The notes under the pieces were generated by a model that worked only from the letters and a program-made list of their open reading frames with translations, did no database searches and had not been told where the DNA came from. From contig JAIORV010000097.1 in NCBI GenBank assembly GCA_021107945.1, positions 2,972-66,971 of the forward strand: a DNA stretch of 64,000 nucleotides. The letters run 5' to 3'. A program made the translations under genes and the position numbers. Shown here one piece after another: positions 24,127-57,867 of the stretch. Positions within the stretch are counted from its first letter, which is position 1; each line of letters begins with the position of its first letter. The stretch comes from Vulcanimicrobiota bacterium (GTDB lineage Bacteria > Vulcanimicrobiota > JAJTBE01).

Positions 24127-24440
24127 ATACCCACCATTTCCTTATTTTTCCCTCAACTTTGTCACATACCCGCCATACTCCTCTTGTATGGTAGTAAAAT
24201 AACCAGGTAGAATAGAGAGCCGGCGTAGCGGCATTGCTTCTATCTCCGGCTCCCCCTCATCAAACCGTATGTTCGTGCAATTGATGAAAGAGTTTGGGAT
24301 TCACTATTTTTCCGGACCGCCCGAAGATGTTGAGGAAAAAAGCTCTTTCCAAAGGCGGAAGGCGGTTAAAAAATGATAGTTCAAGACCTGACCCCTACTT
24401 GACATCATCATTGTTCTATATTATAGAAGCTTTGGATTTA

Positions 24441-24620
24441 ATGTTAAAAAACCTTTTCTCATCTACAATCAGAATAAAATTGCTGAACCTTTTCTTAACC
24501 AATCCTGATAAGAACTTTTACATAAGAGAAATACAACGGTTGGTCAAGAAAACTCTTTCTGCCATCCGCAAAGAGCTTAACAATCTGGAAAGCATAAGGA
24601 TTACCAAATGGGAAACATGA
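24441..24620 (+). CDS. possible small winged-helix (ArsR/TrmB-like) regulator, convergent with the 24628 gene
   Basis: MLKNLFSSTIRIKLLNLFLTNPDKNFYIREIQRLVKKTLSAIRKELNNLE has the spacing of a wHTH N-terminus. An upstream TTGACA-17-TATAGA sequence is promoter-like. The upstream part of the longer ORF lacks coding character. Confidence 0.3.
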   Translation: MLKNLFSSTIRIKLLNLFLTNPDKNFYIREIQRLVKKTLSAIRKELNNLESIRITKWET

Positions 24621-24627
24621 AGTCTGA

Positions 24628-25641
24628 TTAGATCAAATCATCAATACTGATCTCTTCTTTTGGAAGATTTTCAAGCTCTTTTTGATTCCCAGCCCCTCCG
24701 AAGAAATTCGAGAGAGCAACAGTCTCTTCTTCTTTGGGATTTTCAAGCTCCTTTTTGATTCTATCAATTGTGTCTCTTAGCTGCATGATTTCATCATTTG
24801 TGGGACTTAAAGGGCAGGGCAAATTTATATTAATGATAAGAGTAATGGGAATATTCTCAGCTTCTTTGGGGGTTTTACCTGTCATTTCTTCAGTTTCCGG
24901 GAATGTGGTGATATTAACTATTGCTCCATCGCTCTTGATATTAAGGACTTGTTGAATATCTTTTTCCTTCTCATCCAAAGCTGCATTATCCTTTTCCAAC
25001 GCTATTTGAACGATTTTTTCCCCTCTTTCATTTTTAACTCTTTTATATTCTGCAATGCTATAATTACTCAGCAATAAGATCGTTGGAGAAATCTGTGTGT
25101 ATTTTATCTTATCGCAATACTCAATCTCTATTCTTTGCACCAATTCATTCCATGTCAATGGTCTGTCAAAAAAGGAAATTAACTTCTTATATACAGGGGT
25201 TCTGAACAGGATTTTCTTCATGACCTCCTTTGATTTCTCTCTGTTCCAGGGAAGCATCTTGACAAAATCAACAAGATTCGGAATTGGTAATATGGTTAGA
25301 TCAAGTGGAGAACTCACAGATCTCAGATATTGCACCGGATTCTCCACAATATTTCCTGAAGAATCCAGGATATGTATCATCTTATTTGAACATAAGAACC
25401 TGGTGAAGAAACTTACTGTTTGGTCTTTAAGTTTCCCCTCCATATACTCAATTATTTTCCTGGGATCTGTGGGCCTTGTACCATGTTCACTCGTAATTGC
25501 CATAGTTACAAGGAAATCCTCAAATTCATTGTGCTGATAATATATGATGAGATAATCCTTCAGAGGAATTAATGGAATTGATGGTTTCTTGCTCTTTTCC
25601 GTTTGCATCTTATTCACTGGCCTTTCAGAATTGTTCATCAT
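24628..25641 (-). CDS. hypothetical protein (~337 aa), downstream partner of the P-loop NTPase gene
   Basis: No recognisable motif. Start placed at the internal Met pair, 28 nt after the upstream stop. Codon usage is AT-rich. Confidence 0.45.
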   Translation of the reverse strand: MMNNSERPVNKMQTEKSKKPSIPLIPLKDYLIIYYQHNEFEDFLVTMAITSEHGTRPTDPRKIIEYMEGKLKDQTVSFFTRFLCSNKMIHILDSSGNIVENPVQYLRSVSSPLDLTILPIPNLVDFVKMLPWNREKSKEVMKKILFRTPVYKKLISFFDRPLTWNELVQRIEIEYCDKIKYTQISPTILLLSNYSIAEYKRVKNERGEKIVQIALEKDNAALDEKEKDIQQVLNIKSDGAIVNITTFPETEEMTGKTPKEAENIPITLIININLPCPLSPTNDEIMQLRDTIDRIKKELENPKEEETVALSNFFGGAGNQKELENLPKEEISIDDLI

Positions 25642-25669
25642 ATTCTCCTGCTTTAATAAAAAAATATCT

Positions 25670-27256
25670 CTATAATCGAGGCGATTCTCCCCGGGCTTCC
25701 GTCCCGAATCCCGAACCCCGAATTCCGAATCCCGGGTCCAATATATCAAGGGCATTGCGGTATATTGGAGCCACTTTAAAGAATTTGGTTCTCTTAATCG
25801 ATTTCTTGCCAACTTTCTGCAGAAAGCCTGCGTCCAGCAATTGCTTCAGGGCTTCATCCAGTACCTTGTCTTCATTTTCTAATTCCAATATCTCAATTAG
25901 ATCTTTCCTGGAGAATTTAACCTTTTCTTCCCCCCTGAAATACTCAACTTTCTCTCGTATATCCCTAAAAATGTTATAGAGGTAATCATTTAACTTGGAG
26001 GACGAAGCATCCTTCAGGCCAAAATCGACCGCTTCCCTCCCAATAATAGAGCCTTGATTGTCTCTCTTCCTGTTATACAAATCAATCTGGCTGTCTTTTG
26101 CTTTTCCCACAAAATTTAGCAGATCCCTGGGAGATATGTTTCCATGACCATCTTGCAGCCTGGAGAAAATATAGTCTCGTGTTGACACCTGACTTCCATC
26201 AGGGTTCTCATAATTCTTTCCAAAAAGCCATTCGAACAATTCAACCGCACTTTGCTCGGAAATACCATTCCCCCCATTATTGAGGAAAAACTGAATCCTC
26301 TTTGAAAGAAGCATTATGAGATGAGTATCATCCCATTCAATTTTCAAAACCTTATCAGAAAAATGATCCTTGTTTACAAAAGGAAGTTCATCATATATAT
26401 CATCTCTTATAAATATCTTCAGCTTTATGTATTCATGAATACGAAAATCTGAATAAGCAGTCATTAGTGTGCCCAGGATTTGTCTTTGATTGTCCCTGTT
26501 ACCCGATCCGGGCCAGGGATAGATTTCATCCACCCGGTCAAACAGTACCCAGACTTCGATAATGCCTTTCCCTTTCTCCCCTCTTGTGAAATTAATATCT
26601 TTCAAGACATCATCAATCAACCTGAGCAAAACACGCAGATTCTCTTCCTTTTCTTCAATGTTTTCATGAGGTGCTCTGAATTCAACGGTTCCTTTCGGCC
26701 CTTCGGGTAATTGAATTCCAAGGGATTTAATATATTTTGGAAGATTGCGAACAATTCCGGGGTCATGTTTATCTCCGGTATATAGCTTTAATTTTGATAG
26801 GTAATTTTCAAGCTTTGATGTATCGATGTTGTATTTTGTGTTATTGGAAATAAAACGTTCACCGATCTTCGAGGCTATATAGATTTCCCATAAGTGCGTC
26901 AATTCATTGTGTGAGTCGGATGTGTCGGGTATTTTGCCAAAACTCCTGACAGCTTCAGTAAATTTATTGAGCTCTCTTACCTCATTTGGGTCATCAATAA
27001 AAATAAGGATCTTGTCTGCGATTTCCGGAATTTCAGGATAATGGCCCTGTTTCTTTTTTAGGATCTGAATAATCGCGCTCTTACCGGAACCCTTTGGGCC
27101 TGTTATGATGCTTTTTCTCCCGGAAACCACTTCAAGAAAATCGAGAGTCTCATAGAAATATTCCGGGAGGTAATTATCATCCTCGGCATTTAAATCTCCT
27201 ATCCTCAATTTTCTCAGGAATTTGATCTTGCTTTCTTTTGTATTATATTGATCCAT
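25670..27256 (-). CDS. P-loop NTPase (Walker A GPKGSGKS near the N-terminus, hhhhDD 28 aa downstream) with ~400-aa uncharacterised C-terminal region
   Basis: SIITGPKGSGKSAI Walker A, ILIFIDDPNE and VWVLFDRVDE acidic motifs. The last ~18 codons (GFGIRGSGFGTEARGESP) are encoded by the cccgaatcccgaaccccgaattccgaatcccgg repeat. Confidence 0.6.
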   Translation of the reverse strand: MDQYNTKESKIKFLRKLRIGDLNAEDDNYLPEYFYETLDFLEVVSGRKSIITGPKGSGKSAIIQILKKKQGHYPEIPEIADKILIFIDDPNEVRELNKFTEAVRSFGKIPDTSDSHNELTHLWEIYIASKIGERFISNNTKYNIDTSKLENYLSKLKLYTGDKHDPGIVRNLPKYIKSLGIQLPEGPKGTVEFRAPHENIEEKEENLRVLLRLIDDVLKDINFTRGEKGKGIIEVWVLFDRVDEIYPWPGSGNRDNQRQILGTLMTAYSDFRIHEYIKLKIFIRDDIYDELPFVNKDHFSDKVLKIEWDDTHLIMLLSKRIQFFLNNGGNGISEQSAVELFEWLFGKNYENPDGSQVSTRDYIFSRLQDGHGNISPRDLLNFVGKAKDSQIDLYNRKRDNQGSIIGREAVDFGLKDASSSKLNDYLYNIFRDIREKVEYFRGEEKVKFSRKDLIEILELENEDKVLDEALKQLLDAGFLQKVGKKSIKRTKFFKVAPIYRNALDILDPGFGIRGSGFGTEARGESPRL

Positions 27257-27489
27257 AAGATCTCCTCATAATGATTCCAATTGTACTTCACCAAGTAGAT
27301 TCTTTGTCAGGAAGAGTGGATCCTCTTTGTCCTTGGATGAATACCTATGAGACTTTTGAAATCTAATGGTTGCTAGTGCAAGATTAAAAGGACAGAACTT
27401 TGTAAAAACAGCTTAATTAATGCCGGCAAAAAAAGGGAAGTGGCAACATATAAACAATTAAATTTTGATAATTAATAAATCAGGAGTTT

Positions 27490-51122: not shown

Positions 51123-52556
51123 TTATTTTTCCGACGGTCCAACGGGAGGTTCGTTCAATCCATATCCGGGAGGTCCGGTAGTAGCTTTCTTTCTGGCCTC
51201 GTTATCCAGAATACTCCTGCCAGATTTTTTCGAATCAGATTGGTCCGACGAGCTTCCTCCTTCATATCTCGATGGAGGCTGTCCACCGGATCCTTCTTTA
51301 CCGTCTGAGTGAACATTCTGCATTTTTTCCGTCGGTTGCGGTGTCGGCTTGCCTTTATATCCGGGAGGCGGAGGTGGATCTTGCGCTTTGCCGTCATTTG
51401 TTCCAACACCCGGCGGCATCGGTGGTTGAAAAGGAGCGGAAGAACCCGAGTGGGTATTTATCATTTCTCCCCTGTTATTAGTGGGCGGTCGATGTGCCTG
51501 CGGCGCTTTCGCAGGTTTATGTGCCGATTGTTTGTGTGTGGATGTCGGATGTTTTGGTGGGAATACCGGTTGTTTTGCTGAAGATTTCGGTTGTTTTGCC
51601 GGGGACATCTGTTTAATATGCATCGGGGCTTTTGCTGATTCTTTTTCAATCCCTACAGGCATTTCCTCAAGAGCTTTTTCCCTTGCCAATTTCTTTGGAA
51701 TTGGCAGCACAATGGGACTTGCTCCCAGCAGGTTCTCGCTCTTGATGAGCAAATTCCACTTCTGCCAATCGGTTTTTAAACGTCTGATGCTCAGAAGGTC
51801 CGGGGGAGGTGGAATAATATTGCCCGCTTTGTCGATAAAGAGCATCTTTCCCTTATCAATATAGATTTCTTTTTCCGGGTCTTTTTTTGGCATGAAAGAA
51901 AGCTTACCATTCCAGGAATATATATGAGCATTATCATTTTTAAGCACTATTTCAAAATCGTTTCCGTCTCCCTTGATAACCCCCCTGGGGGTTGTTACTT
52001 CAAAAATATCTCCCCCACCTTCAATCCACATTCTCCCTTCTTCCAGAACCAACTTAACTCTCTGTTTGAAATTTGTTGTTTCTTCCGATGACTCAAACAT
52101 AAATTTTGTATCTGAATCGGTCCTGACGGAATGTGCAGACCCGGGAATAGCGAAAATATTTCTCCTGGAGTCATTTCCTGTGAGAATCTTTATTCCAAAG
52201 GGAATCTCTCCCTCTTTTTTAGGTGTCCATGTATCAACCTTTTCGTTATAGATCGAAAAATCGGAGTCAACAAATATCGGTTTCAATTTTCCAGTGGATG
52301 CCCTGCTCGGTATTGCCACATGTCCATTTTTTTTCTGATTCTTGTTTGTGCCTGAAAGGGAATAAACGCCTATGGCGGAGATTAAGAGCAGGAAGATTAC
52401 CGCTCCGATAAAAATTGGTTGCCCCAGTGCGGACTTCTTTTTTCGGGGAGGGATTAGAAGCGGAGCATTCTTTGCCTCGATAACGGGTTGCTCGTCAGAG
52501 CCATTTTTTGCTCTTTCCTTCTGCTCCAGGAAACTTTTATAATCAACCGGGTTCAT
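51123..52556 (-). CDS. membrane-anchored FecR-like domain protein with Pro-rich C-terminal region, hypothetical
   Basis: Single TM (IFIGAVIFLLLISAIGVYS). A beta-sandwich-like middle region follows. The C-terminal 180 aa are Pro/Gly/Lys-rich. Confidence 0.4.
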   Translation of the reverse strand: MNPVDYKSFLEQKERAKNGSDEQPVIEAKNAPLLIPPRKKKSALGQPIFIGAVIFLLLISAIGVYSLSGTNKNQKKNGHVAIPSRASTGKLKPIFVDSDFSIYNEKVDTWTPKKEGEIPFGIKILTGNDSRRNIFAIPGSAHSVRTDSDTKFMFESSEETTNFKQRVKLVLEEGRMWIEGGGDIFEVTTPRGVIKGDGNDFEIVLKNDNAHIYSWNGKLSFMPKKDPEKEIYIDKGKMLFIDKAGNIIPPPPDLLSIRRLKTDWQKWNLLIKSENLLGASPIVLPIPKKLAREKALEEMPVGIEKESAKAPMHIKQMSPAKQPKSSAKQPVFPPKHPTSTHKQSAHKPAKAPQAHRPPTNNRGEMINTHSGSSAPFQPPMPPGVGTNDGKAQDPPPPPGYKGKPTPQPTEKMQNVHSDGKEGSGGQPPSRYEGGSSSDQSDSKKSGRSILDNEARKKATTGPPGYGLNEPPVGPSEK

Positions 52557-53111
52557 AAACTCAACTCCATTCTTCTTTTATCCCAACCATGCTAATTATA
52601 CAATAAAAAGGGACGAAATAAAAGTGTTGCTTATTAATTATTCTCCTGTCTATTTCTACAATTTTCCAGAAAAAACATTCCCATTTTTTGTTTGTATTTT
52701 GAATTATTTGCAAGAAATACTTCCAACTTTTCCTTTTCAACTCATATCTTTCACCGCAGAGGACGCAGAGAGCACAGATCTTAATTGAGCAGGACTTGCG
52801 CATTTTGTCGTTGCGAGGAGGCGAAGCCGACGAAGTAATGACAATATTCCCGGTAAAAAGTGCTAAACCATAGCTTAACATTGACAATGTTAATATTGGA
52901 ATAAAAACCCTGAATAGGCTGACTAAAAAGTGTGTTGAGTCATCCTGAGCAGGAATATTTTCCTTGAATATTTGTTGCAACATGTTATAACTCCACAAAA
53001 AAACCTGGCAACATATTCATCGGGGCGTTTGTTGTAAATTATCGAACGGCAGGAATTTATGACAAATTGAAAAAACATTGTCCTTGACTATTAATATTTA
53101 ATTTAAGGATT

Positions 53112-54476
53112 GTGAGTTTAATTTTTATAAGGCACTTTGCAACAGAGGCATTAAATTTTTTACCGGGATTTTCAATTTCAGGATTGATAAGGACTTTTCA
53201 TGGTCTTGGTAATTTTATAATTTTTGGAATCTTGCTTCTTGTTATCATATATGTTTTTACATCAGTACTTTATTCAACCCTGAGAAAGTCTATCTCAAAG
53301 GAAACCGATGGCGAATATGGCGGTGTCTATTTTATTATTTTATCATTCGGTATTACATTCGGCGTCCTGATGTACTATATACTTCGTAGTAGTTTTCACT
53401 CCCTCAGGATTGATCCCATGGGTTCATATTATTACCTCCTGGGGAGCCGGACAACCTTGCCGGCAATAATTGCAGATGTCTTACTTGCTACGTCAGTATT
53501 GGTAGTTACGGGGTGCTGGATACGCATTTACCAGATTCTGCTTATAGAAGATATCGACAGAAGATTTCGCAAGCTGGTAAAACTACTCCCATATCTTTCC
53601 ATCTTTATGACGCTGGGACTATTAACGATAATATGGTTTTTTTATTCCAATGTCTTCCCTTTCTACTGGTATTTCTTTTCTTTTTTTATAATTTACGGGA
53701 TTATTCTTTATTTTTCTCATAAAGACTTTCTCAAGGTACTACAGATGAGAATGTCCAGATCATATGAGTTCGAGGAGCATTTCTCACTCAAGACCATTTC
53801 TATTATCGCCGGCATACTCCTGATTATCCTGATAGCTTTACCGAACATCTTCAGGATTGATAAATTTGCATTTTTCGTCATTCCCATAATGTCGGTTCAG
53901 CGTGTTCTGCCATTCTCTTATATTTTTATATTGTTTTTCGTATTATGGATTGTTTCAATGTATATCACACCGGGAAAAATATTCAGGCAATTAAAAGTGT
54001 TTTCCAGGTTTGTAGAAACCCCGGCAAGAATTTTATTTTTCACCCGGTTCACAAGAAAATTTCTATTCTTCTGGGGTGTAATTTTTCTATTTATTTCGTT
54101 TGTTTTATCGAGTGGCATTATGTTTGGTCCGGGGTTTTCAAATCCATACAAGAACGTAAAAAGGTGTGAAAATAATCTCCGACAAATTGGTGAGGCCATG
54201 GAGCAATGTATAGAGCAGTCTCATTATTTGCCAGATTCGAAAGCCTGGATAAAAAAGACCTGGCTTTCCAAGATAAAAGATAACAGGAAATTAAAGTACG
54301 TTCCTTATTGCCCTTCAGGTGGAGTATATGAATTTAAAAAATGGAGAGATAAAAAGGGCAGGGCGATGTATGAAATAAGGTGCTCCTGCGGCGCACACAG
54401 AAGAGCGCATATTAAGGATAATTTCTATCCCCGGTATATGAGGAAAAAGGGATTGATTAAAAGTTCAAAGAAATAG
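53112..54476 (+). CDS. polytopic membrane protein with Cys-containing C-terminal soluble domain, hypothetical
   Basis: At least eight hydrophobic helices. A basic C-terminal domain carries CENNLRQIGEAMEQC...CPSGG...CSCGAH. GTG start is uncertain. Confidence 0.4.
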   Translation: MSLIFIRHFATEALNFLPGFSISGLIRTFHGLGNFIIFGILLLVIIYVFTSVLYSTLRKSISKETDGEYGGVYFIILSFGITFGVLMYYILRSSFHSLRIDPMGSYYYLLGSRTTLPAIIADVLLATSVLVVTGCWIRIYQILLIEDIDRRFRKLVKLLPYLSIFMTLGLLTIIWFFYSNVFPFYWYFFSFFIIYGIILYFSHKDFLKVLQMRMSRSYEFEEHFSLKTISIIAGILLIILIALPNIFRIDKFAFFVIPIMSVQRVLPFSYIFILFFVLWIVSMYITPGKIFRQLKVFSRFVETPARILFFTRFTRKFLFFWGVIFLFISFVLSSGIMFGPGFSNPYKNVKRCENNLRQIGEAMEQCIEQSHYLPDSKAWIKKTWLSKIKDNRKLKYVPYCPSGGVYEFKKWRDKKGRAMYEIRCSCGAHRRAHIKDNFYPRYMRKKGLIKSSKK

Positions 54477-54515
54477 AGTTACAATACAGACAATCAAATA
54501 CAGGAGGTTGGCAAC

Positions 54516-54857
54516 ATGAAAAATACTCACAAAACATTCATATTTCTTACTGTGCTGGGCTTGGTTCTGATTTTTTTATCATCAGTTTCGGTACATGCCC
54601 AGTTGGTCATGAGCGAGCAGAAGATGAAAATTGTCAAGGTGGAGAGAGAGTTCAACCGCCTCCAGGCAAGGGTACATGAGGACAACAAGGGAAACGTACA
54701 GTATATACTTGTTGATGGCAATACGAAATTCTCACACAACAACCGTGAGGTCAGTTTTAATAAAGCCTGGAAAATGTTCAGAAAAGATATGATAATCCGG
54801 GTAAAGGGTGGAGTAACTATCACCGGAAAAATCAAGGCTAAACAGATATGGTGGTAG
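54516..54857 (+). CDS. small secreted protein (113 aa) with signal peptide, hypothetical
   Basis: Signal peptide MKNTHKTFIFLTVLGLVLIFLSSVSVHA. RBS aggaggt upstream. Confidence 0.45.
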   Translation: MKNTHKTFIFLTVLGLVLIFLSSVSVHAQLVMSEQKMKIVKVEREFNRLQARVHEDNKGNVQYILVDGNTKFSHNNREVSFNKAWKMFRKDMIIRVKGGVTITGKIKAKQIWW

Positions 54858-54873
54858 ATGGCTTCTGCTAATA

Positions 54874-57867
54874 CTATCTATCTAGTATTTCTCTCACTTT
54901 GTTCAGGAAGTCTATCTGACTGAAAGGTTTTTCAATAAAATCAAGCCCCTCATCGAATTCATAATGTTCTTCCAGAACACCCCTGGAATAACCGGACATG
55001 ACAAGTGTTTTTATGTCGGGATCCATTTGCCGGATCTTCAAGGTCAAATCGACACCGTTTGTTTTCGGGAGAAGCAGATCAACGATTAACAAATCAGGCT
55101 TTTCATCAGCGGATTCATATTGTTGTTTTGCCTGCTCTGCGTTAGTGGAAAAGATAACTTTATAACCCGCATCATTGAGCATTCCCTTTATAAGTTTTCC
55201 TATCATACGATCATCTTCCACAACCATTATGCATTCAGAAGCTCCGGAAAGCGCATTCAAATCCGGGGGAGTCTTTTCCGAAATCCCGGATTTTTCCTCA
55301 ATTGCGGGGAAATATATATTAAATATAGTTCCCTCTCCAGGCTTACTTTCTACAACGATATAGCTTCCTGCCTGTTTTACCATACCATAAACAGTTGAAA
55401 GTCCCAGTCCGATTCCCCTTTCTCTATCCTTAGTTGTAAAGAAAGGCTCAAATATGTGAGATAAGGTTTCATCATCAAGTCCTACGCCGGTATCTCTTAC
55501 CGAGAGTGTTACATAACGGCCGAGTTTGACAAATGGATGGCTTCTTTGAAAAATATCATCAACCGTGAGCATTCCTGTCTGTATTACAAGATCCCCTCCT
55601 TCTACCAGAGCATCCCTTGCATTGACAACAAGATTCATTACAATTTGCTCAACCTGTGCGGGGTCAGCTTTCATCAGGGAAATAACAGGCGAAAGGATTG
55701 TTTTTAAAGAAATATTTTCCGTAATGAGTGGACGTATTATCCTTTGAATGTCTTTGATAATTGAATTGAGATCAACCACCCTGGGAGTTACAACTTGCTT
55801 CCTGCCAAATATCAACAACTCTCTTATCAAGTCAGACCCCTTGTCAGCCGCCTTGTTGATATCATACAAGTATTCAAGAATTGGATTTCCCGGTTTAAGC
55901 TTTTTTCCGGCTATTTCCGCATTTGCCATAATACTCATCAGAATATTTCTAAAATTGTGGGCTATTCCACCGGCAAGGCTCCCGATTGCCTCCATTTTCA
56001 TTGCCTGACTTAGCTGTTTCTCAAGCATAACTTTTTCAGTTATATCTGAAACCATTACCAGGTCGATGATGTATTTTCCGTTTTCATCAGCAAAAGGAGT
56101 GGCATGAATCCTTCCTGTTCTGTGACTTCCGTCTTTTGCCAGAAATTTAATTTCATAGGGAGGAATTTGCTCTCCCCTCATCCTCATATTGAAGTTATTG
56201 AGGACTTTACCGGCTGTTTTCTTATCCCATATGGGGAGTTCCATAATATTCTTTCCTATTACTTCATCGGCTTCATAACCAAGCCAATCGGTAATCCTAT
56301 CATTTGTCCCTATAAAACAACCGTTTTTATCAAAAAGCACTATAGCCTCCGGGGAGAGTTGAAATATTCTTCTGTACTTCTCCTCGCTTTGCCTTAACTT
56401 CCTTTCCATTTCCATGCGCCTTGTCACATCCCTGAATACCCCCCTTGTTCTGACCGGCTTTCCCTCTTCAAAGCGGCAGTTTGCGCCACCCTCAACTTCT
56501 ATGGTCCTGCCGTCCTTGCTTACGAACCTGGCTGAAATACCTTTTTCATTTTTACCCGATATCACCTGTTTAAATACAGCTTTACAATGCTCAATGCTAT
56601 CCGGGTGAATTATATCAAAAAGGTTCAGGTCGGCTATCTCCTCATCTGTGTATCCAAGAGTCTCTTTCCATGCCCTGTTTACATATTCAAATGAACCGTC
56701 AGTCCTCACAGACTGGATCAGGTCGTTCGCATTTTCGAAAAGGTCTCTGTATTTCTCTTCGCTTTCCCTTAGTTCTTCTTCTCCTTTTTTCCTCATAAGG
56801 GCGTTAATTAACACTTCTCCCACTATCTTCAAAAGGGTGATAGTATCTTCATTCCATTTTTTTTCAACTTGTATAGAGTCGAAGCCAAGAAATCCCTTGA
56901 TTTCATCCTGGTATATCATGGGAACAACAATCAGGGACTTGATTGATTCAATCTGAAATTCTTCTTTTTCCGCTAACGCTTCATCTGGAAGGTCATCCAC
57001 TCTTGGAACATAAAAAATATCGAAATTCCTTATTTTCCCGTTAAAATAAGGAAGAAAATCAGAATCAAGATCCGTCAATCTGTTTTTTTGTGACCCAATA
57101 CCCTCACCACACCACTCATGTGTATTACTCCTTTTTTTTCCATCATCCGAATAAAGAAATATATAGCTTCTATCGACATTGGAAAAATTGCCGATTTTTC
57201 TCAGGGCATGATTAATTCCACTATCTATTTCTTCCGGGGAAAGACTTATAAAATGGTTGGATATGGATGTTATGAGATCCTCAAATTGCAGGCGGTATCT
57301 TAATTCTCCCTCGATCTTCTTTCTCTCTTCAATCTCTTTTTTAAGTAACACATTAGATTTTACAAGCTCATCCGTTCTCTTTCTGACTTTCGCTTCAAGC
57401 TGATAGCGAGCCTTTATCAGGGAATCTTCCGCTTTTCGGCACTTTCTTGCCTGACTCTTTAATTTCTCGACCAACCCATGCTGATCCATTGCATACCGGA
57501 GGGTACGTATAAACAAGTCACTGTTTATCTCACCCTTTACCAGGTAACTCTGGGCGCCTCCCTTCAGGGCTTTCATTCCCATAGTCGGATCGTCCAGGGC
57601 GGTTAGCACGATTACAGGCTTATCGGGAGCTTTCTTGCGGACTTTATGTAAGGTCTCTATACCCTGACTGCCGGGGAGCCATAAATCAAGAAGAACTAAA
57701 TCTATCTTGTTATCGGCAAGATAACTGAAACACTTTACAAGATCGTCGGCATGCTTGATTTCAAAATCATTCCCGTCGGAAACCGAGAGAAGTTCCTGTA
57801 TAAATCTTGCATCATCCGGATTATCCTCAACTAAAAGAACTCTGATCTTTTCAGCCTCCATGAACAC
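54874..57867 (-). CDS. hybrid sensor histidine kinase: REC-coiled coil-GAF-PAS-PAS-HisKA-HATPase-REC
   Basis: N-terminal receiver (LLVEDNPDD...DLVLLDLWLPG). HisKA H-box AHNFRNILMSI. N/G-box HATPase (DTGVGL...GLGL). C-terminal receiver (MVVEDDRMIGKL...DLLIVDLLLPKTNG). Confidence 0.9.
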   Translation of the reverse strand: MFMEAEKIRVLLVEDNPDDARFIQELLSVSDGNDFEIKHADDLVKCFSYLADNKIDLVLLDLWLPGSQGIETLHKVRKKAPDKPVIVLTALDDPTMGMKALKGGAQSYLVKGEINSDLFIRTLRYAMDQHGLVEKLKSQARKCRKAEDSLIKARYQLEAKVRKRTDELVKSNVLLKKEIEERKKIEGELRYRLQFEDLITSISNHFISLSPEEIDSGINHALRKIGNFSNVDRSYIFLYSDDGKKRSNTHEWCGEGIGSQKNRLTDLDSDFLPYFNGKIRNFDIFYVPRVDDLPDEALAEKEEFQIESIKSLIVVPMIYQDEIKGFLGFDSIQVEKKWNEDTITLLKIVGEVLINALMRKKGEEELRESEEKYRDLFENANDLIQSVRTDGSFEYVNRAWKETLGYTDEEIADLNLFDIIHPDSIEHCKAVFKQVISGKNEKGISARFVSKDGRTIEVEGGANCRFEEGKPVRTRGVFRDVTRRMEMERKLRQSEEKYRRIFQLSPEAIVLFDKNGCFIGTNDRITDWLGYEADEVIGKNIMELPIWDKKTAGKVLNNFNMRMRGEQIPPYEIKFLAKDGSHRTGRIHATPFADENGKYIIDLVMVSDITEKVMLEKQLSQAMKMEAIGSLAGGIAHNFRNILMSIMANAEIAGKKLKPGNPILEYLYDINKAADKGSDLIRELLIFGRKQVVTPRVVDLNSIIKDIQRIIRPLITENISLKTILSPVISLMKADPAQVEQIVMNLVVNARDALVEGGDLVIQTGMLTVDDIFQRSHPFVKLGRYVTLSVRDTGVGLDDETLSHIFEPFFTTKDRERGIGLGLSTVYGMVKQAGSYIVVESKPGEGTIFNIYFPAIEEKSGISEKTPPDLNALSGASECIMVVEDDRMIGKLIKGMLNDAGYKVIFSTNAEQAKQQYESADEKPDLLIVDLLLPKTNGVDLTLKIRQMDPDIKTLVMSGYSRGVLEEHYEFDEGLDFIEKPFSQIDFLNKVREILDR

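Follow-up and report, generated by a model that had tools for sequence, protein, structure and literature searches.

The window, meaning the whole stretch of 64,000 nucleotides analysed here, contains two co-directional genes on the minus strand that are separated by 28 nt between the stop of the NTPase gene and the partner gene, at the coordinates that a preliminary description of this DNA had given (Table 1). Both products are listed as hypothetical proteins in the NCBI annotation and come from a Candidatus Eremiobacteraeota MAG. The start of the NTPase gene is preceded by GAGGAG, and the partner start carries AGGAG 5 nt upstream. The AT-richness of the pair mentioned in the same description was borne out, but is modest, since the GC content of the two genes is 38.2% and that of the window averages 42.8% (sd 2.3). 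Equal-sized windows were as poor in GC as the pair in just 3.4% of cases, and GC3 amounted to 0.38-0.41 in the two genes vs 0.47-0.57 in the adjacent ones. The operon promoter could not be located, since the minus strand of the upstream intergenic region holds neither a sigma-70 consensus nor a convincing operator palindrome.

Table 1. Features of the two-gene locus, with positions counted from the first nucleotide of the window.
Feature	Position	Strand	Description
Upstream intergenic region	27257-27489	minus	Presumed operon promoter, from the sequence
Gene 1 (NTPase)	25670-27256	minus	528 aa; NCBI MCD4784118.1; ORC/Cdc6-STAND-like AAA+ ATPase, Sll1717 family
N-terminal motif LRKLRIGDLNAEDDNYLPEYFYE	27149-27217	minus	Consensus L..L.FG..vAE.D..L..YFvET; just before the P-loop
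Walker A, GPKGSGKS	27077-27100	minus	Residues 53-60; G53, K55, G56, G58, K59 and S60 invariant
Walker B, VWVLFDRVDE	26525-26554	minus	Residues 235-244; D240 and D243 invariant; strand β3 (234-239 in the model)
LKIFIRDDI	26396-26422	minus	Residues 279-287; R284 and D286 invariant; strand β4 (277-284 in the model)
C-terminal winged helix of the ATPase	25742-25939	minus	Residues ~440-505; G477 and Y499-R500 conserved
Gene 2 (partner)	24628-25641	minus	337 aa; NCBI MCD4784117.1
Most conserved partner motif, KMLPWNREKSKEV	25222-25260	minus	Family consensus FAK.APWDE..AK
Predicted winged helix 2 of the partner	25000-25197	minus	Residues 149-214; basic, pI 9.5
C-terminal strand-helix of the partner, PITLIININL...DEIMQLRDTIDRIKKELE	24742-24849	minus	Consensus hNINLNLT..T.DEEL..LV.K.K
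Convergent ORF, possible wHTH	24294-24620	plus	108-aa product
wHTH-like fragment	24441-24620	plus	59 codons; PADLOC PDC-M05A, E 7e-9, positions 8-59 of 201

A small wHTH gene had also been suspected at the 3' end of the pair. The convergent ORF does exist, but its wHTH resemblance is limited to the last 59 codons and covers only a small part of the matching profile. Given that no source calls a gene with exactly the 108-aa or the 59-aa product, it looks from its sequence like a truncated gene fragment. No plasmid homologue of this small ORF was found, and the wHTH-like stretch is probably not part of the system described here.

Sequence and fold of the ATPase

The product of gene 1 passes the NCBIfam model NF047389 ("P-loop ATPase, Sll1717 family") with 200.7 bits vs a cutoff of 75 (E 4.6e-59), residues 19-496 matching profile positions 1-428 of 454. 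This family has a name only, without a described function, and a literature search on 'Sll1717' returned no paper mentioning it. The window ATPase retains all residues that are invariant across the family (alignment A1) and carries the Sll1717 motifs FG..AE..YF, G.KGSGKSA (Walker A), hhhhDR.DE (Walker B), IF.RDD and PR(E/D)L. G20, E25, L30 and F34 of the N-terminal motif are invariant (alignment A1), and the motif aligns with the N-terminus of the antiphage protein DS-41 and with positions 7-52 of Pfam ORC-CDC6-like (PF24389), a model that scores 20.5 bits, under its gathering score of 27, and only over the N-terminal 44 residues.

The Walker A motif reported in the preliminary description is present and invariant in the family, whereas the roles of the two acidic boxes had been swapped there. 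VWVLFDRVDE is the real Walker B, because D240 and D243 are invariant and because it is positioned on strand β3. ILIFIDD (residues 83-89, within KILIFIDDPN 82-91) was rejected for this role, as it forms strand β2 and is not conserved. Going by AAA+ topology, LKIFIRDDI would represent the sensor-1 region. The roughly 300 residues once taken for a long uncharacterised C-terminus are the rest of the AAA+ fold, the lid and the winged helix of a protein that belongs to NF047389. The structure model (pLDDT 78) consists of an AAA+ core, a lid and a C-terminal winged helix, and it shows the ORC/Cdc6-type architecture, in which a large helical insert follows strand β2 and the lid is helical. Its closest folds are SSO1545, Cdc6/ORC, STAND/Avs, BrxC and RdrA. 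Judged by its motifs, this AAA+ ATPase of the ORC/Cdc6-STAND type is catalytically intact.

PDB sequence searches with both proteins, run with single sequences and with profiles, yielded only P-loop-level or winged-helix-level matches. The archaeal ATPases SSO1545 (2fna) and PAB2304 (2qen) share 13-17% identity with the window ATPase and give no sequence-level match. A Foldseek search against viral structures returned only generic AAA+ matches with a TM below 0.3, and tblastn of the NTPase against phage genomes returned nothing. Neither an effector domain nor a transmembrane segment was recognisable in the ATPase or in the partner.

The partner protein

The partner matched nothing in Pfam, NCBIfam or PADLOC. 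It is a member of an undescribed family that is absent from the domain libraries and at the same time large, with 755 representatives at 50% identity. A low-confidence structure model (pLDDT 57.6, pTM 0.37) and weak matches indicate that it contains winged-helix domains. Because the model is poor, the arrangement with two winged helices, as well as any DNA binding, is provisional. The predicted layout runs from a basic N-tail through winged helix 1, a PW(D/N) motif, winged helix 2 and an acidic linker to a conserved C-terminal strand-helix. Winged helix 2 is modelled as three helices followed by a hairpin (149-159, 164-175, 181-193, 198-203, 209-214), and the mean pLDDT of these elements is about 54-84. 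The C-terminal strand-helix motif, which is aligned in all partner homologues, is the best-modelled part of the protein (pLDDT 78-91). W132 is invariant and K138 nearly so in alignments A2 and A3, and P131 is nearly invariant in A3. We predict a soluble, non-enzymatic protein. A PD-(D/E)xK-type nuclease, at which the spacing D...AEYK had been thought to hint, was rejected, as even the closest homologue does not conserve the motif and no nuclease fold appears.

Pairing, distribution and mobility of the two genes

The partner adjoins the NTPase in all 12 of the 12 members of one NTPase clade, to which the window ATPase belongs, and lies beside none of about 88 other family members. The window ATPase falls into a clade distinct from the rest of NF047389, always followed by the downstream partner that the other members lack. 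This clade covers at least four phyla, including Eremiobacterota, Acidobacteriota, Planctomycetota and Verrucomicrobiota. Outside the window, 11 loci have an intact NTPase, and in 10 of these the two frames overlap or are at most 4 nt apart, with no gap measured for the contig-truncated locus L025, and the stop and start codons usually overlap in the paired clade. The earlier idea of a two-gene module thus proved true, as the partner occurs with every clade member and nowhere else among the loci examined. A gene of ~660 aa downstream of the Clostridia relatives was considered as an alternative partner, turned out to be UvrB and was dismissed as an unrelated neighbour.

In 55 of 55 comparisons the partner was less conserved than the ATPase, and the identities of the two proteins were correlated (Spearman 0.92), which shows that the partner evolves faster than the ATPase and strictly together with it. 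Among the best 80 loci of a scan of 185,579 species genomes, the pair was present in eight distinct genomes. The neighbourhood comparison called for in the preliminary description revealed that only the pair itself is conserved, while the flanking genes differ between lineages. Moreover, one lineage seen in many samples carries a frameshifted ATPase next to an intact partner. The different neighbours, the GC content below that of the flanks, the ATPase frameshift and the location of relatives on mobile elements indicate that the pair is mobile and dispensable. It is a self-contained and conserved two-gene operon that moves horizontally between bacterial phyla.

Plasmids, a Tn3 transposon and 25 IMG/VR contigs harbour other members of the wider ATPase family. 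On 113 enterobacterial plasmids, a Tn3-family transposon carries a fused relative as a passenger. The pair itself was not found on IMG/VR viral contigs, where a scan with alignment A8 detected no gene of the partner. The Tn3 passenger, together with the prophage-like character of the IMG/VR contigs, would fit a mobile-element relic or cargo, composed of a TnsC/MuB-like target-selection ATPase and a DNA-binding selector, or forming the replication module of an integrated element. We consider this very improbable, given that the Tn3 case represents cargo and not transposition machinery, and that both genes are intact, show translational coupling and have been conserved as a pair of their own in 12 lineages. 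In addition, no transposase, integrase or tRNA gene lies close to the pair in the window, the nearest tRNA genes being 16 kb away, and no meaningful direct or inverted repeats flank it. A search for the empty site in metagenomes via the flanking M14 peptidase gave no relatives.

Genomic neighbourhood

None of the six flanking genes in the window matched a PADLOC model. Among the 80 neighbours of 13 paired loci, 31 PADLOC families were matched (E ≤ 1e-6), each by a single member, which we read as about 1-3 proteins with strong matches, one type IIG restriction enzyme being the main one. Housekeeping genes make up most of the neighbours, and the cassette is not located in a defence island. Such surroundings, and a fold closest to Cdc6/ORC and archaeal ATPases, would also agree with a cellular role outside of conflict, in which a DNA-associated ATP switch and a winged-helix adaptor, comparable to Orc1/Cdc6 with a tandem winged-helix loader, would serve chromosome transactions or transcription control. 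We regard this role as quite unlikely, since the pair is sporadically distributed in the genome scan, has different neighbours in every lineage, is lower in GC than the host genes, undergoes pseudogenisation and includes a fast-diverging partner, and since no other replication or partition genes adjoin it.

Comparison with known defence systems

The DefensePredictor study (PMC13092281) reported DS-41 (AAA2, WP_033812887.1), an antiphage system that consists of a single gene and has been validated in E. coli. The NCBIfam model of DS-41, NF053860, matches residues 231-494 of the window ATPase (E 2.6e-13) with 49.7 bits vs an equivalog cutoff of 370; at the sequence level, the window ATPase is for this reason a distant relative of DS-41 and not a member of its family. 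The family HMM matched the DS-41 sequence from the supplement of that paper in a collinear manner (E 5.7e-9, 21 bits). Both proteins are of similar size (502 aa in DS-41) and have in common, in the same order, the N-terminal F..AE motif, Walker A, a long helical insert, a Walker B (hhhhDKLDE), I.W and SPRELI. In contrast to DS-41, which was cloned as one gene, acts alone and was tested against phage, the window clade co-inherits a partner without exception.

The second link to defence is the PADLOC candidate PDC-M28C, which matched the window ATPase with an E of 2.5e-11 over residues 235-322 only, and matched ATPase relatives without a partner more strongly and over a longer stretch (5.9e-19). 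The other PDC-M28 components are absent, as the partner and the six flanking genes match no PADLOC model, and a literature search on PDC-M28 returned nothing. The proposed resemblance to antiphage systems therefore stands insofar as the NTPase is distantly related to DS-41 and PDC-M28C, but this NTPase is no orphan and has its place in a named family.

Orc/Cdc6 ATPases accompanied by rapidly evolving proteins of 2-4 winged helices have been found in conflict systems (PMC10853773, PMC12839542). The combination of an AAA+ ATPase bearing a terminal winged helix with a separate, fast-evolving protein of predicted winged helices would be shared with SspC-SspB, DndG/DptG-type and HerA/FtsK 'capture' systems. 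Unlike in the Ssp, Dnd and HerA systems, no modification enzyme, nuclease or HerA adjoins the pair, and the partner, in its low-confidence model, appears to have two winged helices instead of three. The PADLOC models of SspB, SspC and DptG matched neither the window ATPase and partner nor the partners at loci L001, L002, L012 and L017, and the only Dnd match, DndC to the ATPase, was at chance level (E 0.025). Compared with STAND/Avs proteins and NLRs, the window ATPase is devoid of sensor repeats and of a fused effector; its fold is NOD-like, but nothing follows the winged helix, so that its 528 aa essentially correspond to a bare NOD-like module. Septu/PtuA, PARIS, AbiL and other defence systems with ABC-type ATPases were rejected, given that the fold is AAA+ and not ABC and that there is no nuclease partner; the PtuA match (E 0.004) concerned the P-loop only.

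Several observations on relatives would suit an addiction module of the toxin-antitoxin or abortive-infection kind, in which the ATPase would be toxic, the winged-helix partner would act as its neutraliser and as autorepressor of the operon, and infection or loss of the partner would free the ATPase. A solo gene of the partner family adjoins an IS element, distant partner-family genes stand first in overlapping operons before genes for HEPN-like (R-x4-H) proteins, which is the usual position of an antitoxin, and a Sll1717-family gene on an Aeromicrobium plasmid follows a gene with an AbiEi-antitoxin domain. The small, mobile and self-contained nature of the cassette and the intact partner beside the frameshifted ATPase point in the same direction, the latter coming from one lineage only. 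Nevertheless, such a module seems unlikely to us: the ATPase gene comes first here, no operator-like palindrome lies upstream, toxicity of such ATPases is without support, and DS-41 alone was tolerated in E. coli (PMC13092281).

Discussion

The explanation we favour, to which we give about an even chance, is that the pair represents an accessory conflict module, directed against phages or plasmids and composed, after a recurrent design, of an ORC/Cdc6-like ATPase and a rapidly evolving multi-winged-helix subunit. The link to defence is provided by the homology to DS-41, seen with NF053860 and with the family HMM, and by the PDC-M28C match. In the mechanism that we infer, the partner would bind DNA and interact with the ATPase, either supplying the recognition of nucleic acid or another target or gating the ATPase, which would assemble on the recognised DNA in an ATP-dependent manner and then carry out the response. 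This response would not be cleavage, as nuclease, NADase, protease and membrane domains are missing from both proteins; invader DNA may instead be occluded or remodelled, so that replication or packaging is blocked, or the assembled ATPase may be toxic. We count against a defensive role that no effector and no defence island are present, that the relationship to DS-41 is remote, that the partner model is poor and that the pair is missing from IMG/VR.

In most characterised defence systems built on an ATPase, this protein works with a nuclease, NADase or protease. The strictly co-inherited pair described here has none of these domains, and its distant relative DS-41 protects E. coli by an ATPase alone. 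If defensive, the pair would serve as a compact model of an ORC/Cdc6-like switch that stops an invader although no killing enzyme is obvious. In that case, two sizeable families would also gain a function, the Sll1717 ATPases and the partner family that Pfam, NCBIfam and PADLOC lack. As a cassette outside of defence islands, it belongs to a class that is missed by neighbourhood-based discovery.

A more far-reaching version of the conflict module, which we put forward tentatively and with some doubt, is an undescribed anti-invader system without an effector, whose partner family constitutes a new and widely used class of adaptors for different executors. The fast-evolving partner with its two predicted winged helices would aim or gate the bare ORC/Cdc6-STAND-like ATPase, and invader DNA would be stopped by ATP-driven binding and occlusion or by toxicity of the ATPase. 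The executors would then be the Sll1717-type ATPase in one branch of the partner family and the HEPN-like proteins in another.

Conservation of the gene pair

Genes 1 and 2 are co-directional minus-strand ORFs with the coordinates and spacing given in the preliminary description, the TAG of gene 1 lying 28 nt from gene 2, and both products are annotated by NCBI as 'hypothetical protein' (MCD4784118.1 and MCD4784117.1, respectively; Candidatus Eremiobacteraeota MAG). A longer, TTG-initiated version of gene 2 is supported neither by the homologue alignments nor by the NCBI annotation. Loci of the ATPase family comprised the best 80 from one genome per species, 25 from IMG/VR and others obtained by exact look-up. 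When 101 distinct ATPases were placed in a neighbour-joining tree, all partner-bearing proteins fell into one clade, which spans Eremiobacterota, Acidobacteriota, Planctomycetota and Verrucomicrobiota. L025, which at first seemed an exception, is truncated where its contig stops yet encodes the first 200 residues of the partner (E 1.8e-61); among the loci collected, the partner is therefore present in 12 of 12 cases inside this clade and in 0 of about 88 outside. The two genes thus clearly do co-occur in other genomes, which favours the module that had been proposed.

At loci with an intact NTPase and a measured gap, the 28 nt of the window aside, stop-start spacing ranges from -46 to +4 nt and is mostly a 4-nt overlap. 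The partner was less conserved than its own ATPase in all 55 pairwise comparisons, the two identities being correlated (Spearman 0.92). Look-ups from the partner side (P0051, P0018 and P0060) found an ATPase immediately upstream in 3/3; in one of these lineages, from peat or soil and represented by dozens of samples (L089-L091), a frameshift splits the NTPase into pieces of 91 and 315 aa and the C-terminal part is missing. The partner there is undamaged, and some 5 kb away is a HigB/HTH_3 toxin-antitoxin pair.

Features of the window and of related loci (locus coordinates refer to the locus named)
Feature	Coordinates	Strand	Details
Gene 1 (ATPase)	25670-27256	-	528-aa ORF; GAGGAG before start
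Gene 2 (partner)	24628-25641	-	337-aa ORF; AGGAG 5 nt upstream of ATG
Longer gene 2 (rejected)	from 25812		TTG start; overlaps gene 1
C-terminal tail of gene 1 product	25673-25741	-	LDPGFGIRGSGFGTEARGESPRL
Direct repeat, 3' end of gene 2	24651-24755		33 nt, imperfect; duplicated peptide KELEN(L)PKEE
Convergent small ORF	24294-24620		
Winged helix-turn-helix remnant	24441-24620	+	59 codons; PADLOC PDC-M05A positions 8-59 of 201, E 7e-9
Second low-GC stretch	~51800-55000		about 37% GC, window minimum
Proline- and lysine-rich protein gene	51123-52556	-	477 aa
Polytopic membrane protein gene	53112-54476	+	454 aa
Distant partner-family operon, L118	2441-4229		gap +18 nt
Distant partner-family operon, L117	5001-7492		gap -14 nt
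Distant partner-family operon, L123	940-3330		gap +1 nt
Sll1717-like ATPase, L125	4965-7061		698 aa; CP067564.1, Klebsiella plasmid
Partner-less ATPase, L126	6354-8458		Aeromicrobium yanjiei plasmid p001, mobilizable
1,111-aa ORF immediately upstream of the pair, L006	889-4224		Acidobacteria genome
Split NTPase, L089-L091	4628-5798		91 + 315 aa
Intact partner gene, L089-L091	6001-6843		

The ATPase and its relation to DS-41

Gene 1 encodes a new member of a family that is named though unstudied, passing the NCBIfam model NF047389 ('P-loop ATPase, Sll1717 family') with 200.7 bits (cutoff 75), whereas its Pfam scan gave sub-threshold P-loop matches only, the top one being ORC-CDC6-like across the N-terminal motif and P-loop. 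The C-terminus, initially taken as long and uncharacterised, is accounted for, since NF047389 matches nearly end to end and the AlphaFold model, computed from an alignment with eleven homologues and of good quality (pLDDT 78.4, pTM 0.79), ends in a lid and a winged helix. Invariant in this alignment are G20, E25, L30 and F34 of the N-terminal motif, the Walker A sequence GPKGSGKS (residues 53-60) recognised at the outset, D240 and D243 of VWVLFDRVDE, R284 and D286 of IFIRDD, and W308, R320 and P376-R377. ILIFIDD, first noted as an hhhhDD motif, is unconserved; in the model ILIFID forms strand β2, which follows the P-loop helix, and about 140 helical residues separate it from VWVLFD on β3, the Walker B position of AAA+ folds. 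From AAA+ topology, R284/D286 may represent sensor 1 and R377 sensor 2. Structural relatives (scores in brackets) are Cdc6/Orc1 chains (10-12.5), the plant NLR WRR4A (11.4), the SIR2-STAND protein EfAvs5 (10.9), BrxC (10.7), RADAR RdrA (10.1), and TnsC and MuB (about 10). Modelled fold, structural relatives and invariant motifs together identify the protein as a predicted AAA+ ATPase of the ORC/Cdc6-STAND type, its catalytic residues intact and without additional domains. The window's ATPase alone carries a glycine-rich C-terminal tail (pLDDT about 30), which is absent from its homologues.

The NCBIfam equivalog 'DS41_1 anti-phage protein' matched residues 231-494 of gene 1 with E 2.6e-13, at 49.7 bits against a cutoff of 370. 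In the DefensePredictor study, DS-41 ('AAA2', WP_033812887.1, 502 aa), a system of one gene, made several BASEL phages plate less well on E. coli; its homologues reach as far as Halobacteria (PMC13092281). In a single comparison, an HMM of 101 family members aligned collinearly, motif by motif, with a partial DS-41 sequence from the supplement of PMC13092281 (E 5.7e-9), and an independent profile comparison aligned the N-terminal motif and P-loop of the family with DS-41. By this collinearity and the sub-cutoff match, the window's ATPase is remotely related to a defence protein that has been validated, but lies outside the DS-41 family. The PADLOC candidate model PDC-M28C also matched gene 1 locally (E 2.5e-11). 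Unlike DS-41, which functions as a bare ATPase, gene 1 is inherited together with a partner.

The partner family

As first noted, gene 2 has no recognisable domain: Pfam, NCBIfam and PADLOC models gave no match, and a word-indexed search of 5.8 billion proteins recovered only gene 2 itself. On a 3.3-kb metagenome contig, the gene of an ATPase 56% identical to gene 1 overlaps by 10 nt a downstream gene whose 330-aa product shares 31% identity with gene 2 (E 2e-37). Overlapping genes, for products of 270-296 aa, also lie downstream of the ATPases next in similarity (Terriglobia, Brocadiia, Chthoniobacterales); an HMM made from these products matched, among 3,640 ORFs, only the partners of the window (E 0.008) and of the 3.3-kb contig (E 0.02) in addition. 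Profile-profile comparison gave E 4.8e-5 over 140 columns, and when the partners are aligned jointly, collinearity extends from an LP motif near the N-terminus to a 'NINLNLT...EEL..L' strand-helix at the C-terminus. The partner-family profile, run in full with HMMER against 1.84 billion cluster representatives, returned 755 sequences at E ≤ 1e-3, of which 355 reached E ≤ 1e-10, and an HMM from 130 members found the contig's partner independently (E 7.5e-12). Neither the family nor its obligate pairing appears in the libraries and literature searched; a prior description elsewhere is possible.

Compared with Pfam one by one, these 130 proteins gave weak winged-helix matches only (HrcA, RuvB_C, DnaD_N, MksE, AbiEi). 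One of them carries Pfam EAD7, 'effector-associated domain 7' (E 5.6e-19), an adaptor domain described in prokaryotic immunity systems. The AlphaFold model of gene 2 is poor (pLDDT 57.6, pTM 0.37), but in its better parts a helix-helix-helix-hairpin spans 149-214, a unit of similar form precedes it, and the C-terminal helix is predicted well. Gene 2 has no transmembrane segment, a basic middle (pI 9.5) and an acidic C-terminal third (pI about 4.3). The partner alignments contain no catalysis-like invariant residue; their top conserved motif is PW(D/N)..K, with asparagine instead of aspartate in the window's protein, and the D...AEYK spacing that had hinted at a PD-(D/E)xK nuclease was abandoned, AEYK being unconserved. 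An imperfect direct repeat duplicates a peptide near the 3' end of gene 2.

Other members of both families hint at a part in conflict biology. The more distant genes of the partner family do not lie beside the ATPase; in 3/3 look-ups the gene after them abuts or overlaps and encodes 307-327 aa, and its product has an N-terminal winged helix, a faint DUF4145 match as its sole Pfam hit, and invariant AFE.FLR and MR-x4-H motifs that we read as a putative HEPN-like signature. One of these loci, L117, encodes a HerA/DUF87 (HerA-type) ATPase and also a partner-family protein extended at its N-terminus by 140 aa, a stretch that matches PDC-M34A. On the ATPase side, a 698-aa 'ATP-binding protein', in which an Sll1717-like ATPase (HMM E 5e-35) is fused to a C-terminal domain, is cargo of a Tn3-family transposon, beside a resolvase gene, on 113 enterobacterial plasmids; its last 200 residues match PADLOC candidate PDC-M36A (1.4e-11), and their RRDIIG...VVFDAKN pattern resembles, in our reading, PD-(D/E)xK. 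The partner-less Sll1717-family ATPase of L126 lies directly downstream of a gene annotated as an AbiEi-family antitoxin domain protein and is followed by a 623-aa hypothetical protein. In gut Clostridia, a clade of partner-less ATPases of the Sll1717 family (L009, L011, L014, L019) lies immediately upstream of a ~660-aa gene, which is uvrB in L011, the one tested.

Orc/Cdc6-clade ATPases with rapidly evolving proteins of two to four winged helices, the latter proposed as DNA-recognition subunits, are a recurrent design, as in SspC-SspB, DndG/DptG and HerA/FtsK capture systems (PMC10853773, PMC12839542), of which the window's pair would be a stripped-down version. The best-supported reading, for which we consider the chances evenly balanced, is an accessory conflict module in which the fast-evolving winged-helix partner would recognise a target or gate the ATPase, and the ORC/Cdc6-STAND-like ATPase would assemble and execute the response. 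Since there is no effector domain and DS-41 works as a bare ATPase, the likely output would be that invader DNA is occluded or remodelled in an ATP-dependent manner, or that the ATPase is itself toxic. An undamaged partner next to a dead ATPase and the partner-first, HEPN-like operons would also suit a toxin-antitoxin-like pair in which the partner neutralises, a reading that we regard as unlikely.

Genomic context and composition

In the window an M14 peptidase lies to one side of the pair; to the other lie a 4Fe-4S protein and an ECF sigma factor with its anti-sigma factor. Elsewhere the neighbours are DeoC and ROK opposite an M50 peptidase and a GH2 hydrolase, a cytochrome c protein opposite GSDH and GH10, or a methionine-synthase domain gene. 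PADLOC matched none of the window's flanking genes and, among 80 neighbours at 13 paired loci, one member per family, mainly one type IIG restriction-modification enzyme (1e-267), with weaker radical-SAM and PDC-S03 matches. The 1,111-aa ORF immediately upstream of the pair in L006 is, judged by its size, probably this enzyme. Neighbours thus vary by lineage with few PADLOC matches, and the cassette therefore moves as a unit, typically outside defence islands. Housekeeping neighbours would agree with a cellular role in DNA transactions, but its patchy occurrence, varying context and gene decay make this improbable. Less probable still is that the pair is left over from the machinery of a mobile element itself, as neither a transposase nor element ends are present; the cassette borders in the window carry no repeats, integrase, transposase or tRNA. 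We regard the conflict module as a solid, testable candidate with a clear evolutionary signal, lacking an effector and a defence-island context, whose defence role we infer.

The AT-richness ascribed to the pair is real though moderate: its GC content is 38.2%, compared with a mean of 42.8% (sd 2.3) for equal-sized windows, 3.4% of which are as low, and its GC3 is 0.38-0.41 compared with 0.47-0.57 in six neighbouring genes. The small convergent winged-helix gene suggested at the 3' end exists as an ORF with a winged-helix-like end; any resemblance is confined to its last 59 codons, corresponding to the first quarter of PDC-M05A. This remnant stops 7 nt short of the stop codon of the partner, which is encoded on the other strand. 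Neither version tested corresponds exactly to a gene product called by any source, and no plasmid homologue was found. We treat the small ORF as a gene fragment outside the module, and the remnant may be the stump of a gene cut when the cassette arrived. A second low-GC stretch of the window contains genes for a proline- and lysine-rich protein and a polytopic membrane protein.
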